NCBI GenBank assembly: GCA_015063985.1
Contig: SVTC01000007.1
Span: 35,477 to 99,476, forward strand
Length of the DNA stretch: 64,000 bases
Direction: 5' to 3'
DNA from: Oscillospiraceae bacterium
GTDB taxonomy: Bacteria > Bacillota > Clostridia > Oscillospirales > SIG627
Each line of letters starts with the position of its first letter. The first letter of the stretch is position 1. The position numbers and the translations under genes were made by a program. This document shows, in pieces, positions 16,248 through 60,910 of this stretch. The notes beneath the pieces were generated by a model. It saw only the letters and a program-made list of their open reading frames with translations, did no database searches and had not been told where the DNA came from.

Positions 16248-16360
16248 CAGAGGTTTTCCACATATGTGGAAAACCTCTGTGGAAAAGTTATTGTAAACCA
16301 AAATCCCTTTTTTATACTCTTTTATCGACTTTTTTCTCAGATGCTTAAAGTTATGTAAAC
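16248..16360. repeat. copy 1 of a dispersed repeat: 32-bp perfect palindrome, GTTATTGTAAACC box and TATGTAAAC box
   Basis: CAGAGGTTTTCCACATATGTGGAAAACCTCTG (16248-16279) is a perfect palindrome. The 47-nt core at 16253-16299 matches 17764-17810 at 41/47 positions. The second box, TATGTAAAC, is at 16352-16360. Confidence 0.85.
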
Positions 16361-17763: not shown

Positions 17764-17871
17764 GTTTTCCACACCTGGGGAAAACTCCTGTGAAAAAGTT
17801 ATTGTAAACCTCGAAAACTCCTTTTTCGGGCTTTTAAGCCATTATTTTCTCCGATAAAAAAATATGTAAAC
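17764..17871. repeat. copy 2 of the 16248-16360 repeat
   Basis: GTTTTCCACACCTGGGGAAAACTCCTGTGAAAAAGTTATTGTAAACC (17764-17810) and TATGTAAAC (17863-17871). The two boxes sit at the same 53-nt offset as in copy 1. Confidence 0.85.
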
Positions 17872-34550: not shown

Positions 34551-34562
34551 TTTGTGACCCTA

Positions 34563-34734
34563 AACACCATCGAGCACTGTATTTGCGTGAACTATGTCGT
34601 CATTGAAGGTTTTTTGCCTACTTTTTTTCAAAGCTCACGTCCCTATCAGTACTAATATGACCTTCGAGCACTGTGTTTGTACTGACTTTACCGACATTGA
34701 AAGTTTTTTGCCTACTTTTTTTCAAAAAAGTAGG
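34563..34734 (-). repeat. stop-codon-abutting hairpin plus two tandem units of about 94 bp (locus A)
   Basis: The palindromic hairpin CCTAC T7 C A6 GTAGG (34711-34734) starts at the nucleotide after the TAA of the oxidoreductase gene. The unit core is GCAAAAAAC..TTCAATGTCG..AACACAGTGCTCGA. Confidence 0.85.
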
Positions 34735-35772
34735 TTATGCTTTGGGATATTTGATCTTAACGGGCATACCGGTCTTGGTGGACTCAACGGTAGCGGTGCA
34801 GACAGCCACGGTGCTTGCGCCCTCAAGACTGCTTACGGGGAGGGGAGTGTTGTTAACAAGGGCGTTGACAAAGGCATCGATTTCCGCGGTAATATTGTGG
34901 TTGTTGATCTCGATGGGTATCTCCTTGCCCTTGGTGAAGCTGCTTTTGCCGTTTTCCAGAGGACCGACGTCTTCAAAGAGCGTCATTGTGGGAGAGGTGT
35001 TGTCGCAGATTATGGTACCGTTGGTGCCGTAGAAAACACTTCTCATTGTGTAATCTCTCTTGCATCCGATGGAGGTGAACACCTTACCTGCAACGTTGTT
35101 GGGGAACTTGTAGATGGCAACTGCACAGTCGTCTGTGGGCCAGGTCGTGAGACACTTGTGGTTAGCAATGGCATATACCTCGCCGGGGTTGCCCGCGATC
35201 CATCTGAGAAGATCAACTGCGTGGCATCCGCCGCCGATAAAGCCGTGTCTTTCGGGTGTTACTCTCCAATCGTCCACACCTCTTGCCTTGGCATAGCTGT
35301 GAGCGTATTCGCTTTCAACAAAGAAAAGCTCGCCGATCTTGCCCTCCTCGATGAGCTTCTTTGCCTGCAAAAAGGCGGGGGTGCAACGGCATACCTGACC
35401 GATCATAAGTCTTCTGCCGGACTCCTTTTCGGCATCGATCATTCTCTGACACTGCTCCATATCAAGAGCCATAGGCTTTTCGCAAAGAACGTCCTTGCCG
35501 GCTCTGAGGAATGCTTCGGTCATTTCCAGATGGTACTGGTCGGGTGTAACGATAACCGCCGCATCAACCTTGGGATCGTTTACAAATTCTCTGTAATCGG
35601 TCACCGCCTTTTCAACGTCAGGGAAGCCCTCAAGCCTCTTTTTGAGAATGTCCTCGTGCTTGTCGCATATTCCGTAAAGCTTTGCGCCTTCCTTTGCAAC
35701 AACTCCGTCCATGTGACGTCTTGCCATATCACTGCATCCGATAACTACAATGTTTAAAACTTTATTTTCCAT
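34735..35772 (-). CDS. Gfo/Idh/MocA-family NAD(P)-dependent oxidoreductase
   Basis: N-terminal Rossmann motif (NIVVIGCSDMARRH) and the EKPM motif (CEKPMAL). 345 aa. Confidence 0.85.
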   Translation of the reverse strand: MENKVLNIVVIGCSDMARRHMDGVVAKEGAKLYGICDKHEDILKKRLEGFPDVEKAVTDYREFVNDPKVDAAVIVTPDQYHLEMTEAFLRAGKDVLCEKPMALDMEQCQRMIDAEKESGRRLMIGQVCRCTPAFLQAKKLIEEGKIGELFFVESEYAHSYAKARGVDDWRVTPERHGFIGGGCHAVDLLRWIAGNPGEVYAIANHKCLTTWPTDDCAVAIYKFPNNVAGKVFTSIGCKRDYTMRSVFYGTNGTIICDNTSPTMTLFEDVGPLENGKSSFTKGKEIPIEINNHNITAEIDAFVNALVNNTPLPVSSLEGASTVAVCTATVESTKTGMPVKIKYPKA

Positions 35773-36810: not shown

Positions 36811-37085
36811 TATGTAAACCAAAAGCTTTCGAGCACTGTGTTTGCATTGATGTGATCGACATTGAAAGTTTTTGCCTGCTTTTTTTCAAAACTCACGTCC
36901 CTATCAGCGCTAATATGACCTTCAAGCACTGTGTTTGCACTGACTTTACCGACGTTGAAGGTTTTTTGCCTGCTTTTTTCAAAACTTCCATTAAAGTTGG
37001 CACTGATATCGCCATCGAGCACTGTGTTTGTGCTGACTCTGTCGACATTGAAAGTTTTTTGCCTACTTTTTTTCAAAAAAGTAGG
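36811..37085 (-). repeat. stop-codon-abutting hairpin plus three 93-bp tandem units ending in GGTTTACATAA (locus C); open in frame with the upstream gene
   Basis: The hairpin at 37062-37085 starts right after TGA (37086-88). GCACTGTG recurs at 36833, 36926 and 37019, giving a 93-nt period. The minus-strand frame is open for 91 codons up to the TAA inside the TTTACATAA box. Confidence 0.85.
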
Positions 37086-38429
37086 TCAGAACAGCTTTTC
37101 GCAGAATTCCTCGATGAGACCCAGATCCCAAGCCAAACGGCTTGCAACATACTTGTCGCGGATATCCTTGGTTGCCTTGAAGGAATCCTTGAGGCAATCG
37201 GGACAGATACCGATCTCCTCAACCGCCTTGGGTGCACCGATAAGGTCCATAAGATCCTCAACGGTCTTAGCATCGGGGAGCTCTTCTGCCATGATCTTCT
37301 TGATCTCGTCCCAATTATCGATGATCTTTTCAAGACGTGCGGCGTGCTTTTCGAGATTGTATTTGCCGGCGCCTGCCTCTGCCTCGATCATAGTCTCTGC
37401 GGCAGTGCCCAGAAGCTTTCTCAGATCCTCGCTCCAAGCCTCGAAGGAGAAGCTCTTAACGTAGCTGAGAGCCTTTTCTCTGTCGGGAGTTGCCGCCTTA
37501 AGAAGATCGTATACCTTAAGGCTGAGAAGCGTACCTATGCCAACCTGAATACCGTGAAGATCCACGGGAGTTCCAAGCTCAAGACCTCTCATATCCCAAA
37601 CGTGGGAGAAGTAGTGCTCCATACCGGAAGCGGGACGGCTCATACCGGCGTAGTTCATACCGATGCCCGCAATGAGCATACCCTCCATAACACTCTTTAC
37701 GCTTTCGGGGTCGCGCTTGATAAGACCCGCAGCGCCGTCAACAACGCGCTTAAGTGCGGTACGTACAAGACCTGCAACGTTTTCGCAGTAGTACTCTCCG
37801 ATGAGAAGGCTTGCTATTCTCCATTCGCAAATGGAAATGTACTTTGCAAGCATATCGCCAACGCCGGCCTGGAGCATTTTCATGGGAGCATTGCAAAGAA
37901 TATCAAGATCGCCGATAACTACCTGAGGGCAGGTGGAATCAAGAGAGACCTTAAGGCCGTCTCTTGCCATAGAAGAGGTCGCAGATGCGTAACCGTCCAT
38001 ACTGGGTGCAGTTCCAACGATAAAATAAGGGTGACCCGTGATCTTGGAAAGGATCTTTCCCAGATCGTTGATAACACCGCCGCCAACGCCGACGATAAGA
38101 TCGCAGCTGTGGTCGTAGTGCATCACGGCACTGCCAACAGCCCACTCATCGGGCTCAAGATGCTCTTTTCTGAAGGCGTAACGGCTGTGGGGGATCCCCG
38201 CAGCGTCAAGCTCTGCCTCGCAAAGCTCTCCTGCCGCCTTGTAGGTGTTAGTGTCGCAAAGGATAAACACCTTCTTGCCGCCGTACTTTTTAACCAGCTC
38301 GGCAAGCTTTTTTACAGCACCCTTCTCAATGTATGCTTCCTTTACCATTGCAAAATGCTTTTTGCCGCAATCGCACAGTGCGCCGTCGTTGGCAAGAAGC
38401 TCCGCAACGGTTGCTTTTGTCATATCCAT
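37086..38429 (-). CDS. iron-containing alcohol dehydrogenase family protein (glycerol-1-phosphate dehydrogenase/AraM-like)
   Basis: Family-typical GGGVINDLGK and polyol-dehydrogenase His motifs. The start at 38429 (MDMTKA) has GGAGG 8 nt upstream. Confidence 0.7.
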   Translation of the reverse strand: MDMTKATVAELLANDGALCDCGKKHFAMVKEAYIEKGAVKKLAELVKKYGGKKVFILCDTNTYKAAGELCEAELDAAGIPHSRYAFRKEHLEPDEWAVGSAVMHYDHSCDLIVGVGGGVINDLGKILSKITGHPYFIVGTAPSMDGYASATSSMARDGLKVSLDSTCPQVVIGDLDILCNAPMKMLQAGVGDMLAKYISICEWRIASLLIGEYYCENVAGLVRTALKRVVDGAAGLIKRDPESVKSVMEGMLIAGIGMNYAGMSRPASGMEHYFSHVWDMRGLELGTPVDLHGIQVGIGTLLSLKVYDLLKAATPDREKALSYVKSFSFEAWSEDLRKLLGTAAETMIEAEAGAGKYNLEKHAARLEKIIDNWDEIKKIMAEELPDAKTVEDLMDLIGAPKAVEEIGICPDCLKDSFKATKDIRDKYVASRLAWDLGLIEEFCEKLF

Positions 38430-38496
38430 ATTATTTACCTCCAAATCAATCTCTTACACTATTATATTATATCAACGCTCTTTCGTCAAGAGGCGT

Positions 38497-39798
38497 TCAT
38501 TTCACTTTCGGCAGAAAATACATAACCAAAACGGAATCCTTTTTCACCACTCCGTCAAAGAAGCATCTTGACATCGTCTTCTTTTCGCTTATCTCCTCGC
38601 AAAGATAAAGCTCATAAGGGGTATCTATCTCCAGCTCTATATCATTATCGGTGGGGTTTGCCACAACGATGACCTCGTCCTTCTCGCCCCTTGCGCAAAC
38701 GGCATACAGGCCTTCCTTATCGCCCTTAAGAGCAAGCTTTTCGCCTCTTTTGTAGAGCTCGTTAAAGGCAACGAAGGACCAGTAGGTCTTGTAGGGCTCC
38801 GCGCTTGCGGGATCAAAGAGCGAGCCGTAAATACTGACTCCGTAGCGTGCATCGTAGAACATGGCACTGTCCACGGGAAGATCCTCAAAGGAAAGCATCA
38901 TAGCGGCGGTAACCGCGGCATGCTTTGCCGTACCTCGCAGATTTACCAGACTGTTCCACTCGTTTACCGAGATATGAACGTCCTTGTAGCCTGCTTCATC
39001 GAGGGTGTCTCTGGCGTATTTTGCATATACCGCATTGTTTTCAACTGTATCGTAGCTGTGCCAGGAGAAGAAGTCCAGCGGACATTTGTGAAGAGTGATA
39101 TACTCAAGAAAGCGCTTGAAGAATACTATAAAATATTCCTTTCTTGGGGAGCTGTTGGCATTTGCAACAAAGCTCTTTTTCAGATCGTAGAAGCCGCAGG
39201 ATGCATAACCGCCTATCATCAGATGAGGGAATCTACCCTTCAGATGCTTGCTGGCAACGTCATAGAGCTCAAAGTATTCCTCCATATCGCCGCGCCACAT
39301 CTGATTTTCCATAGGATCCTCGTAGTTGTCGGGCTCGTTCCAGATCTCCCAAAAGCGGATATTGTATTTAAAGCCCTTTGCCCAACCCTCGGTATAGTGG
39401 CGGATTATACCCTCGCATATCTTCGCCCATTTAAGCTTGTCCTTAGGCGGGTATATATCGTACGCCTTTACGGCACAGTAGTTTTCTATAGACACACCGA
39501 GACGGATAAAGGGCTCAACGCCGTTTTCCACAAGAGCGCTTATCAAAAGATCCGCAAAACTAAAGTCGTATGCGCTCTCATCCTCGGGATCCCTGGCCCC
39601 GTCCTTGAATATGTAAGGTATGTCCAGGAAGCGACCGTAAAAGAAGCCTACGTCGTGAAGACGGGAAAAGGGAATACCTGCGTCCTTTAAGTAACTAATC
39701 ATCGAAAAGTCAATACCCTTATAGGGGGGCTGACCGACGCCGTGCATAGGCTTGATCCTACCGGTTGAAGCCGATCTGTCCACTGTAAGCTTTGCCAT
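38497..39798 (-). CDS. clan GH-A glycoside hydrolase (GH39-like)
   Basis: The WEIWNEPD catalytic-acid motif in a TIM-barrel-sized protein. The start at 39798 has GGAGAA upstream. Confidence 0.6.
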   Translation of the reverse strand: MAKLTVDRSASTGRIKPMHGVGQPPYKGIDFSMISYLKDAGIPFSRLHDVGFFYGRFLDIPYIFKDGARDPEDESAYDFSFADLLISALVENGVEPFIRLGVSIENYCAVKAYDIYPPKDKLKWAKICEGIIRHYTEGWAKGFKYNIRFWEIWNEPDNYEDPMENQMWRGDMEEYFELYDVASKHLKGRFPHLMIGGYASCGFYDLKKSFVANANSSPRKEYFIVFFKRFLEYITLHKCPLDFFSWHSYDTVENNAVYAKYARDTLDEAGYKDVHISVNEWNSLVNLRGTAKHAAVTAAMMLSFEDLPVDSAMFYDARYGVSIYGSLFDPASAEPYKTYWSFVAFNELYKRGEKLALKGDKEGLYAVCARGEKDEVIVVANPTDNDIELEIDTPYELYLCEEISEKKTMSRCFFDGVVKKDSVLVMYFLPKVK

Positions 39799-49840: not shown

Positions 49841-50018
49841 CACACCTTTTTGAAAAAAGGTGTGCCAAAAACTTTTATTGTCGATAAAGTCAGCATAAAC
49901 AAAGCAATCGATGGTTTTCTCGGCCCGAAACCATACTTTCCTTTTTGAAAAAAGGTGTGCCAAATACCTTTATTGTCGATAAAGTCAGTGCACACGGTAC
50001 TCTATTCATTTATTTACA
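49841..50018 (+). repeat. stop-codon-abutting hairpin plus two tandem units of about 95 bp (locus D), variant hairpin sequence
   Basis: CACACC T5 G A6 GGTGTG (49841-49864) starts right after TAA (49838-40). The conserved core is CCAAAAACTTTTATTGTCGATAAAGTCAG, and the array ends near TTTACA at 50013-18. Confidence 0.8.
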
Positions 50019-50265: not shown

Positions 50266-50294
50266 TTGACTTTTTTGTTGAAATTTGCTAAAAT
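50266..50294 (+). promoter_or_regulatory. strong sigma-A type promoter with an A/T-rich upstream region
   Basis: TTGACT (50266-71), a 17-nt spacer, then TAAAAT (50289-94). Confidence 0.65.
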
Positions 50295-50300
50295 ATATAC

Positions 50301-50514
50301 GTAAACAACAAGAGCGGTTATTTCTTCGGAAATGCCGCCATTAAATATAGCTTACTTCACATCGCTCAGTTTTTTCTCCTCTCTCTTTCTTTTCTGAGCG
50401 AATTTGTTTTTTGGGGTCCCCTCCCCAAACATTGATTACTTGAGCCTTGGAACACAGGCATTATCGTACATAGATCCCCTTTTTAAAAAACGCTTCCTTC
50501 GGGAAGCGTTTTTG
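50301..50514 (+). ncRNA. candidate standalone small RNA of about 214 nt (family unknown)
   Basis: It is bounded by the promoter above and by the terminator CGCTTCC ttcg GGAAGCG + TTTTT (50491-50513). Internal hairpins are at 50314-38 (UUCG loop), 50363-50400 (24-nt all-pyrimidine loop) and 50410-29. There is no downstream same-strand gene. Confidence 0.5.
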
Positions 50515-50524
50515 CGTTAAAAAG

Positions 50525-59564: not shown

Positions 59565-60260
59565 ATGTACAACTCAAAGCTCAAAGCCCTCACCTTCAGC
59601 TTTGATGACGGCGTCACTCAGGATCAACGTCTTATCAAGCTATTGGACAAATATCACCTGCGCTCCACCTTCAACATAAATTCCGCAAGGCTGGATCAGG
59701 CCAAGATCCTCCTCGTAGGCGACGTGACGGTCAGCCACTGCAAGCCCCGTCCCTGCGAGATCAAGGCGATCTACCAAAACCACGAGGTGGCAGGCCACAC
59801 CCTCAGCCACCCCTGTCTGACCACCCGCAGTGACGACGAAATAGTCCGCGAGGTGGAGCAGGACCGTCTTGCTCTCTCCCAACTCTGCCAATACGAGGTG
59901 GTAGGCTTTGCCTATCCCGGAGGCTCCCAATACGTGGACGACAGAGTCATAAGCGCCGTAAGGACCCGCACCGGTGTTAAATACGCACGCAACGCCTGCA
60001 CCTCCGGCAGCTTCGATCCGCCCACCGATCTTTTCAACGTGATCCCCACCGCCTCCTTTCTTGACGGCAATATTTTGGAGCTTGCAAAAGAGTTTATCGC
60101 CATCTCTCCCCATTCCCCCAAGCTATTCTTCATCTACGGACACGCCTACGAGCCCGACGGCTACTCCGACGGCTGGGAAAGAGTGGAAAAACTCTTCTCT
60201 CTCATCTCGCACAAGGATGACGTCTTCTACGGCACCAACAAAGAATGCCTACTTTTTTGA
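59565..60260 (+). CDS. polysaccharide deacetylase (CE4 / NodB-homology domain)
   Basis: The LTFSFDDG and GHTLSHP motifs. The last 13 nt, including the TGA, lie inside the repeat hairpin at 60248-60271. Confidence 0.8.
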   Translation: MYNSKLKALTFSFDDGVTQDQRLIKLLDKYHLRSTFNINSARLDQAKILLVGDVTVSHCKPRPCEIKAIYQNHEVAGHTLSHPCLTTRSDDEIVREVEQDRLALSQLCQYEVVGFAYPGGSQYVDDRVISAVRTRTGVKYARNACTSGSFDPPTDLFNVIPTASFLDGNILELAKEFIAISPHSPKLFFIYGHAYEPDGYSDGWERVEKLFSLISHKDDVFYGTNKECLLF

Positions 60261-60506
60261 AAAAAAGTAGGCAAAAAACTTTTATTGTCGATAGACTCAG
60301 CACGAACACAGTGCTCGATGCTTTGCTTTTCGGGAACAACCCTTTTTAAAAGCAGGCAAAAAGCTTTTATTGTCGATGGAGTCGGCACGAACACAGTTCT
60401 CGATGCTTTGCTTTTCGGGAACAACCCTTTTTAAAAACAGGCAAAAAACTTTTATTGTCGATAGAGTCGGCACGAACACAGTGCTCAATGCTTTAACTTT
60501 ACATAA
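60248..60506 (+). repeat. hairpin plus three 85-bp tandem units ending in TTTACATAA (locus B)
   Basis: CCTAC T6 G A7 GTAGG is at 60248-60271. GGCAAAAA recurs at 60270, 60355 and 60440, giving an 85-nt period. TTTACATAA is at 60498-60506. Confidence 0.85.
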
Positions 60507-60545
60507 TTCGCATTTACAAATGTTATGTAGATCAAACAGAGCTAA

Positions 60546-60906
60546 AAAAGGAAGACCGACAAGAGGCACACTTCCTTACGGAGTGTGCCTCAATTTTCTT
60601 TTTATATAAAATTTGACACTTTCTGTTTGAAAGTGTCATAGTGGGTTACATACTTTGAAATATTACCTATCTCAAAGATAAAAATAATAAGTGATATTGT
60701 GAGACAGGTCTCACAGTGATATTTTTGATAAATCAAAAGTGATATTAAAACCTTGCGGTTTTAGTGATATTTTATTCGCCCCTAAACTCGCAAAGCGAAT
60801 AACACTCGGCTATAGCCGAATATAACTGCGAAGCAATACAACTCGCCTTTGGCGAATAAAACTGAGGCACACTTCCTTACGGAGTGTGCCTCAAGGTCTT
60901 CCTTTT
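60546..60906 (+). repeat. hairpin-ladder element, copy B (TIR-bounded)
   Basis: AAAAGGAAGACC (60546-57) pairs with GGTCTTCCTTTT (60895-906). An identical 31-nt hairpin unit occurs at 60563-93 and 60864-94. GTGATAT occurs 4 times and then ATAnnAC 4 times, interleaved with perfect hairpins. Confidence 0.85.
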
Positions 60907-60910
60907 GCTT

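Follow-up and report, generated by a model that had tools for sequence, protein, structure and literature searches.

We analysed a 64,000-nt stretch of DNA from an Oscillospiraceae bacterium (contig SVTC01000007.1 of GenBank assembly GCA_015063985.1; hereafter the window), in which the gene of a CE4 polysaccharide deacetylase (59565..60260, + strand; 231 aa; Pfam PF01522, E = 2e-17) ends inside the first hairpin of a tandem repeat array. We refer to this place as locus B. The 3′ end of the deacetylase open reading frame (ORF) reads ...AAA GAA TGC CTA CTT TTT TGA, encoding a product that ends ...NKECLLF*, and the last codons of the gene form the left arm of a palindrome, TGCCTAC-T6-G-A7-GTAGGCA (60246..60273, +), with a 12-bp stem. 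This head hairpin (H module) is made up of CCTAC (60248-52), T6 (60253-58), G (60259), A7 (60260-66), and GTAGG (60267-71), with seven perfect flanking stem pairs around the T6-G-A7 centre. Folded as RNA, it reached -14.2 kcal/mol (z = -5.3), and none of the 200 shuffled sequences folded equally well. In the minimum-free-energy structures, the TGA stop codon (60258..60260, +) lies within a 4-nt apex loop, UGAA, consisting of the stop plus one A. A model that read only the sequence (the original prediction) had claimed that the last 13 nt of the ORF, including the stop, lie inside a hairpin and that the TGA sits in its loop; our coordinates confirmed the former, and the minimum-free-energy folds bore out the latter. 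The hairpin that it placed at 60248-71 is present, and the palindrome is in fact longer, extending from 60246 to 60273.

The head hairpin opens an array of three units (60248-60505, +; nhmmer and Tandem Repeats Finder), all on the + strand. Unit 1 (60248..60332; nhmmer E = 1.6e-23) has the full hairpin, a core CAAAAAACTTTTATTGTCGAT..GAACACAGTGCTCGATGC, and a linker. Unit 2 (60333..60417; E = 1.4e-20) has no left hairpin arm and is missing in strain L045, and unit 3 (60418..60499; E = 6.9e-20) has a complete core with a tail in place of the linker. The exact 85-nt period claimed earlier was reproduced by Tandem Repeats Finder (period 85, 2.7 copies, 92% matches, 0 indels), and the GGC anchors of the units are at 60270, 60355, and 60440. 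The array ends with a tail hairpin, TACATAA...TTATGTA (60500..60529, +), which is paired in the minimum-free-energy fold, and downstream of it the terminator scan found an intrinsic terminator, GAGGCACACTTCC..GGAGTGTGCCTC plus a T tract (60563..60601, +; -21.6 kcal/mol, z = -6.8). As set out below, locus B probably marks the start of a mosaic tandem repeat that is specific to the lineage and non-coding, occupies a 3′-untranslated-region (3′-UTR) position, is fused to the gene end, and contains a frame that is not translated.

Units and arrays of the repeat family

The repeat unit was found in 10 copies at four window loci with nhmmer E values of 1e-16 to 1e-24. In addition to locus B, there are three sister arrays, each with a terminator downstream: three units with a 93-nt period directly past the TGA of an Fe-ADH gene (36817..37085, - strand), two units with a 94-nt period directly past the TAA of a GFO/IDH/MocA oxidoreductase gene (34560..34737, -), and two units with a 95-nt period directly past the TAA of a 691-aa gene (49841..50010, +), the last with the stem CACACC/GGTGTG. 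A unit consists of an H hairpin in which a variable stem of 5-7 bp flanks a constant T5-7-G-A6-7 centre, a core of ~50 nt with the consensus CAAAAAAC-TTTYAWTGTCGAT-N-RAACACAG-N-TCGATG, and a linker of 20-45 nt. Window units are 85-95 nt long, the array periods overall are 85, 93, 94, 95, 111, and 121 nt, and all units of an array are in direct orientation. The tail motif TACATAA...TTATGTA also ends the arrays at 34560-34737 and 36817-37085.

Two further arrays, facing each other between mntP and lon, lie ~4-5 kb upstream of the window in L064, which belongs to the same genome, so that this genome carries six arrays within ~86 kb; the tail motif occurs three times in L064. Related arrays are also present in short contigs of the close relatives L001, L002, L048, and L049. 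The arrays are mosaic, with solo H hairpins and a GC-rich ATGGGGCGCTGCCCCATGCCCC repeat interspersed among the units. In L045 (749-911), two units correspond to the three at locus B (window 60248-60505), and it is precisely unit 2 that has been lost; array copy number changes between strains, by slippage or unequal exchange.

The ATGGGGCGCTGCCCCATGCCCC GC hairpin stands in between the H-plus-core units, mostly ahead of those with a CCCTC/GAGGG stem. It occurs in four copies with a ~43-nt period at L064 5895-6020 and also at L002 975-1000, L048 250-275, and L049 665-690. The terminator of the lon-side array (L064 6340-6385, -) reads GCGAACACATTCC-TTTAA-GGGTGTGTTCGC followed by T6 and has GCGAACACA in common with the loop motif of the core. 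This shared GCGAACACA hints that part of the repeat core may derive from a terminator arm.

Placement of the arrays relative to genes and terminators

We counted ten arrays in total, four in the window, two in L064, and one each in L001, L002, L048, and L049. In eight of them the head hairpin abuts a stop codon, starting between -10 and +3 nt from its end. The distance past the stop is 0 nt in four arrays (34737, TAA; 37085, TGA; 49841, TAA; and mntP in L064, TAA), 1 nt in L001, and 3 nt in L049, and at locus B and in L002 the hairpin reaches 10 nt into the ORF ahead of the stop codon. Given intergenic regions of several hundred bases, this placement in eight of ten arrays is far from random. 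The orientation of the array is that of the upstream gene in all ten. The original prediction had suggested a targeting of gene ends, and as a pattern it holds (8/10 arrays at a stop).

All four window arrays sit between convergent genes, sense to one of them, and downstream of each, on that strand, lies a strong GC hairpin with a U tract behind it (energies between -21.6 and -26.8 kcal/mol, z between -5.9 and -6.8). Because they lie in sense between a stop codon and an intrinsic terminator, the window arrays lie in 3′ UTRs and are expected to be transcribed. The H module itself was rejected as an intrinsic terminator, since CAAAAAAC follows it on the sense strand and the true terminators are 190-320 nt further on.

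Hairpin structure and conservation of the units

Among the 24 T-G-A centres of the family, 14 have at least five perfect Watson-Crick flanking pairs, and the other 10 have at most three. Eight different stems were found (CCTAC/GTAGG, CCTACC/GGTAGG, CACACC/GGTGTG, CATAC/GTATG, CCCTC/GAGGG, CCACC/GGTGG, CTTAC/GTAAG, and TTACC/GGTAA), and the predicted stems of this first hairpin co-vary. Such all-or-nothing pairing fits selection for the hairpin and equally fits template-switch correction of quasi-palindromes. The units have a second hairpin, AGCAC-GAACACA-GTGCT, for which a double compensatory change to AGCGC...GCGCT was found in the orthologous unit of L002; the wobble pairs of this hairpin amount to three independent events for the sense strand vs one for the other.

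We compared the window with L002 to relate the units to neutral change. Unit 1 was 90% identical (87 aligned columns), and the 4-fold degenerate sites of the deacetylase gene were 62% identical. The sequence of the units has been held above the neutral level, which we infer to be due to selection or to homogenisation between copies.

This conservation would also suit an array of small RNA (sRNA) genes or a single repeat-containing sRNA, with a promoter in the head hairpin and the downstream terminator as its end. A TTGAAA in the hairpin loop is followed at 17-18-nt spacing by a T-rich hexamer (TTTTAT/TTCAAT/TTTAAT) in most head units, and a terminator follows every window array. However, these candidate -10 hexamers do not have the near-invariant A at position 2, and the promoter scan found no promoter at the candidate sites. 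Moreover, the internal units of locus B (CCCTTTTTAAAAGC) and unit 3 of L048, which has another GC hairpin, keep the core without a -35 element, and no Rfam family matched. A sigma-70 promoter within each unit was rejected on the same grounds, the missing A2 and the absence of the -35 element from several core-keeping units, and we give the sRNA explanation little credence.

The C-terminus of the deacetylase

The original prediction held that the module had replaced the native 3′ end of the gene. To follow this up, we used the best 120 of 4671 deacetylase homologs, together with the relatives L001 (a strain), L002, and L003, whose deacetylases share 99%, 87%, and 75% amino acid identity with that of the window, respectively. 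The 120 homologs are 231-246 aa long and cover the deacetylase completely or nearly so. After the motif YGTN, 111 of them have the tail x-x-[VCI]-L-L, matching CLL of the window; 37 stop exactly at LL, one residue before the window protein, and the remainder add 1-6 variable residues. Since [VCI]LL is conserved in the homologs, the codons TGC CTA CTT in the left arm of the hairpin encode the family's own C-L-L, and only TTT TGA (Phe and the stop) plausibly came from the repeat. Therefore, nothing functional was replaced. The claimed replacement stands only for the stop and the final codon or two, and it fails for the rest, where homologs keep [VCI]LL.

The relatives show how the gene end looks with and without the repeat. 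In L003, which does not have the repeat at this locus, the gene ends TGC CTC TTG GAA TCA TAA (CLLES*) and is directly followed by an ordinary terminator. L002 shares the fused end TGC CTA CTT TTT TGA; its right arm has decayed (AAAAAACAAGCAAA), and intact units follow. L001 reads TGC CTT CTT TTT TGA A CCTAC-T7-G-A7-GTAGGC, with the same protein end and a separate intact hairpin 1 nt past the stop. The junction at locus B, including T6 and A7, was identical in all 10 independent metagenome assemblies in which exactly this protein is encoded.

A fusion of the repeat head with the gene end could account for these states. The codons TGC CTN CTN for Cys-Leu-Leu by themselves resemble the left arm CCTACTT. 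A repeat head that first lay just past the stop would have been joined to the gene at the microhomology CCTNCT, either through a deletion or through illegitimate recombination, so that the left arm of the hairpin (CCTACTTTTTTGA) became one with the native final codons TGC CTN CTN. Such a fusion would have exchanged the stop and, before it, one or two terminal codons that are not conserved; the enzyme would keep ...CLL and gain one Phe, and the gene would now use a TGA that chances to fall in the hairpin loop. Because L002 has the fused state too, the fusion probably predates the species split. Common to L002 and identical in the 10 assemblies, it is probably old and stable, and the state of L001 may then be a later 15-nt duplication, if the fusion came first. 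For the protein, the fusion is neutral, and we read the overlap of gene end and repeat as a harmless accident.

The peptide frame and frameshift readings

In the original prediction, the frame that carries a conserved peptide in the other loci starts at C60248, -1 relative to the gene. This frame indeed reads PTFLKKSRQKTFIVDRLSTNTVLDALLFGNNPF and then TAA (60347-49). Each unit was said to close with its own TAA, which is correct for units 1 and 2; unit 3 has no in-frame TAA, and its equivalent frame stays open to 60609 (ORF 60370..60609). It had also been noted that differences between units fall mostly at codon position 1. We found five of the six variable sites of the 53-nt three-unit core at this position and none at position 2.

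The accompanying view that the units do not look translated was upheld by the relatives. Stops interrupt the peptide frame in L002 unit 1 (TAG), L002 unit 2 (two stops), and L049 unit 1 (TAA); the cores are 49, 50, or 51 nt long across the family; and the mean pairwise differences at codon positions 1/2/3 are 3.5/3.6/4.65, almost flat. When the 91-aa translation of the array at 36817-37085 was searched against 5.8 billion predicted proteins, there were three matches, all of them ORFs called over arrays. The frame is in phase with the upstream gene at three loci because the hairpin starts right after the stop. We take the peptide frame to be untranslated, a side effect of an A/T-rich repeat whose start coincides with stop codons.

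It is scarcely credible that the arrays encode small proteins or, by stop-codon readthrough, C-terminal extensions of the upstream proteins. The frame is open through the three 93-nt units at 36817-37085, gene callers have placed ORFs on arrays (P0121-P0123), and the synonymous fraction is highest in this frame. The phase agreement at three loci, which might seem to favour translation, is automatic for a hairpin that begins right after a stop. The stops in L002 and L049 units, the 1-nt core indels, the almost equal variation of the codon positions, and the mere three matches among the 5.8 billion proteins argue against coding, as do the lack of a start codon with a ribosome-binding site and the fact that most array periods are not multiples of 3.

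The original prediction had further raised a -1 slip that would join the deacetylase frame to the peptide frame. A stop preceded by C UUU UUU G is a plausible place for a ribosomal shift, and a longer deacetylase isoform could arise from programmed recoding, either by a -1 slip with tRNA-Phe on UUU and UGA in the A site or by transcriptional slippage on T6/A7. The -1 frame is open for 30 codons, and the 15-nt difference of L001 preserves the -1 phase relation. However, the predicted tail, LKKSRQKTF...NNPF* in the window, is unrelated after LKK to the tail LKKQANPFNSPYFFEKKYAKNF* of the 87%-identical ortholog in L002. Efficient transcriptional slippage usually needs longer runs than T6 and A7, and the length of these two was constant among the 10 assemblies. 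At three other loci the frame relation is 0, not -1, and the frame is broken by stops and 1-nt indels in relatives. The slip, though mechanically conceivable, is therefore not supported, and programmed recoding of either kind is highly improbable.

Neighbouring features

Between two perfect copies of a 31-nt terminator hairpin, GAGGCACACTTCCTTACGGAGTGTGCCTCAA (60563-93 and 60864-94), lies an AT-rich cassette of ~300 nt (60594-60894; core 60689-60864). It has its own promoter-like site at 60613-42 (TTGACA, 18-nt spacer, TG-CATAGT) and two matches to Rfam Gut-1 (RF01706), at 60689-60775 (+; 30.8 bits, E = 2e-4) and 60794-60864 (-; 34.7 bits, E = 2e-5), both below the gathering score of 50. Both matches consist of three hairpins with a repeated heptamer (AGUGAUAUU or GUUNUAU) between them, and the cassette may be a diverged Gut-1-like RNA pair. 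In public assemblies, the sequence context changes precisely at the end of the second hairpin copy (~60894), with three alternatives downstream: GH28 in the window, L045, and L067, an AMP-binding enzyme gene in L038 and L041, and transketolase in L040. Contigs of sample 3300031555 break inside the cassette. It is probably multi-copy or a rearrangement point, and the join seen in the window could be strain-specific or an assembly choice. Additionally, AAAAGGAAGACC (60547-60558) and GGTCTTCCTTTT (60897-60908) are inverted copies around the two hairpin copies, and if the cassette were absent, they would pair as the outer stem of a single long terminator that separates the deacetylase and GH28 genes and works in both directions. 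This arrangement suggests that the cassette inserted into, or duplicated, that terminator.

Elsewhere in the window, a 47-nt sequence occurs at 16253-16299 and 17764-17810 with 87% identity and contains a perfect 22-bp palindrome, GTTTTCCACATATGTGGAAAAC. The copies lie upstream of two minus-strand units, one for a cytidylyltransferase-like enzyme and the other for a GDSL-like protein and a SIR2 deacetylase, and they are probably a shared operator of an NAD-related regulon. A replication origin near 16-18 kb, considered on account of TTTTCCACA-type boxes, was rejected because the neighbours are NAD-related enzymes and not dnaA. At 50266-50515 (+), shortly past the 49841-50010 array, a strong but orphan promoter-like site (TTGACT, 17-nt spacer, TG-TAAAAT) stands ~200 nt ahead of a hairpin with a T tract (AAACGCTTCCTTCGGGAAGCGTTTTT, ~50489-50513); this segment has no ORF and no Rfam match and is a candidate small RNA.

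Discussion

The array would be co-transcribed with its upstream gene, and its most likely role would be that of a REP/BOX-type structured 3′-UTR element affecting mRNA 3′-end stability or termination; alternatively, a non-coding repeat of this kind may persist as a tolerated selfish repeat. Several observations weigh against this interpretation of locus B. The L048 array, which comes after a terminator, and the lon-side array of L064, which begins ~30-85 nt past the stop, do not abut a stop codon. Co-transcription and any effect on the mRNA are deduced from position only. None of the intact hairpins has a G-U pair, so a DNA palindrome or template-switch correction fits as well as an RNA stem, and both strands fold alike (z = -5.7 and -5.5), so the energies do not indicate a sense-strand RNA. 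The separate L001 hairpin, 1 nt after the stop, is compatible with either order of events, fusion first or duplication first. Finally, the synonymous fraction of single-nucleotide differences (177/442) is higher in the peptide frame than in the other two frames, in a comparison of unit pairs that are not independent.

The pairing that is either perfectly Watson-Crick or absent and the equal folding of both strands are what an element acting at the DNA level would show, that is, an array of palindromic binding or recombination sites for a dimeric DNA-binding protein, a recombinase, or a transposase, or else a selfish MITE-like repeat of no use to the host, whose stop position would reflect an insertion-site preference. 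Its variable copy number, its narrow taxonomic range, and its mosaic structure with solo hairpins and a second GC-rich module, like that of BIME and BOX clusters (PMC3049150, PMC3733652), agree with such an element. On the other side, terminal inverted repeats and target-site duplications escaped definition: head and tail are not convincingly joined by an inverted repeat, and the sole empty site, in L003, is too diverged for borders. No transposase adjoins any array, and 90% unit identity vs 62% at neutral sites is unlike a dead insertion unless the copies are homogenised. Furthermore, the orientation follows the upstream gene in 10/10 arrays, for which a role linked to RNA or translation fits better than symmetric DNA binding. 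We regard a DNA-level element as unlikely.

A terminating ribosome would cover and melt the left arm of the head hairpin, and at locus B it would have to open the whole stem before reaching the stop. The arrays might therefore be a new element tied to translation termination, either a ribosome-melted 3′-UTR RNA switch that reports translation of the upstream ORF or a mobile element specific for stop codons. We leave this reading open because of the stop-abutting heads (8/10), the gene-sense orientation, the co-varying stems, and the 90% vs 62% identity, and we consider it decidedly unlikely. Two traits of the family are nevertheless unusual, namely the head hairpin exactly at stop codons and the conservation of the units well above the neutral rate. 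The repeat family is a modest novelty, mainly for its stop-codon placement. Judging from sample numbers, its host may live in goat, rumen, or gut-type consortia.

For annotation, the non-coding repeat has practical consequences. Public data carry spurious called genes of 70, 77, 90, and 119 aa over the arrays, which are artefacts caused by the repeat, and the arrays break or mis-join short-read assemblies. Long spurious ORFs begin within arrays or cross them on both strands, at 36852-38525 (+) and 60297-60569 (-) of the window, L039 381-740, and L041 2623-2856. Locus B is also a caution: an ORF ending in a repeat hairpin beside an open frame mimicked recoding and replacement of a gene end, where a neutral fusion has changed at most the last residue.

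Comparison with known systems

The family appears to be an undescribed small mosaic intergenic repeat outside any named family. Rfam gave no gathering-level match in the window and none with E < 1 on the arrays, and a blastn search against plasmids and phages returned only a 31-nt A/T-run match to a Mycoplasmopsis plasmid. A scan with the pattern GCAAAAAACYTTYAWTGTCG gave 16 single matches among 185,579 species genomes and 17 among JGI metagenome contigs, whereas viral contigs had none; by nhmmer, none of the matches proved to be a real unit, so that the family is missing from these collections at this stringency. As far as these scans reach, the family seems confined to a few uncultured Clostridia, whose taxon names come from more distant homologs.

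Rickettsia palindromic elements (RPE) were reportedly found by Ogata et al. in 2000 inserted in frame in protein genes. As in RPE, a palindromic repeat at locus B gives codons to a host protein without destroying it. In contrast to RPE, only the final codon and the stop are contributed here, at the extreme 3′ end, and the remaining array is outside the ORF.

Three further systems were considered and rejected. Type III toxin-antitoxin systems, common in Clostridia, have ToxI-type tandem RNA repeats of ~36 nt (Blower et al. 2012, PMC3401426). The present arrays share with them a direct tandem repeat followed by an intrinsic terminator (PMC3401426). However, the array here sets in at the stop codon of a metabolic gene that is unrelated, the units are 85-95 nt long, no ToxN/AbiQ-like toxin ORF lies past the terminator, and there is no sense ORF, except repeat-derived ones, between the array and the convergent gene. 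CRISPR was rejected since linkers recur between loci (TCATATTAG..GATAGGGACGTGAG at both 34560-34737 and 36817-37085) and no cas genes were seen. A diversity-generating retroelement was rejected since there is no reverse transcriptase nearby, the units are outside the ORF, and their differences are not adenine-specific.

The next closest family after BOX is REP/BIME, whose short palindromes are found behind coding regions (Di Nocera et al. 2013, PMC3733652). These elements lie mostly between convergent or co-directional ORFs, plausibly form RNA hairpins, and occur in mosaic clusters, and some reach into genes (PMC3733652). The H module is likewise a 24-28-nt palindrome, with 14 intact copies and six arrays in ~86 kb of the genome, and its commonest stem reads GTAGG/CCTAC, comparable to the GTAG-tagged families (PMC3733652). 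Unlike the unpaired GTAG/CGTC tag of REP, the motif is paired here, and only GTAGG, GTATG, and GTAAG of the eight stems begin with GTA; stems such as GGTGTG, GAGGG, GGTGG, and GGTAA have no GTAG. The orientation does not alternate as in REP, the tandem units being direct throughout. The hairpin is coupled to a ~50-nt non-palindromic core, and the host belongs to the Clostridia and is not a Proteobacterium. The gene tables of the loci contain no transposase beside the arrays; RAYT was not searched for genome-wide.

The closest architecture is that of the BOX elements of Streptococcus pneumoniae, boxA-boxB(n)-boxC, which occur alongside RUP and SPRITE (Croucher et al. 2011, PMC3049150). Both are small modular intergenic repeats in a Firmicute, with a tandem internal module of variable copy number (PMC3049150). 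The modularity is matched here by a full head hairpin, two or three units, and a tail hairpin, and strains differ in having two or three units. Other likenesses are stem-loops if transcribed, lone modules, clustered repeat types, accidental ORFs, and a narrow species range (PMC3049150), as well as co-transcription with neighbouring genes, which in the present arrays would follow from their position (PMC3049150). On the other hand, the units here are 85-95 nt long vs 45 nt for boxB. The head hairpin always has the orientation of the gene and is placed exactly at its stop codon, which is not described for BOX.

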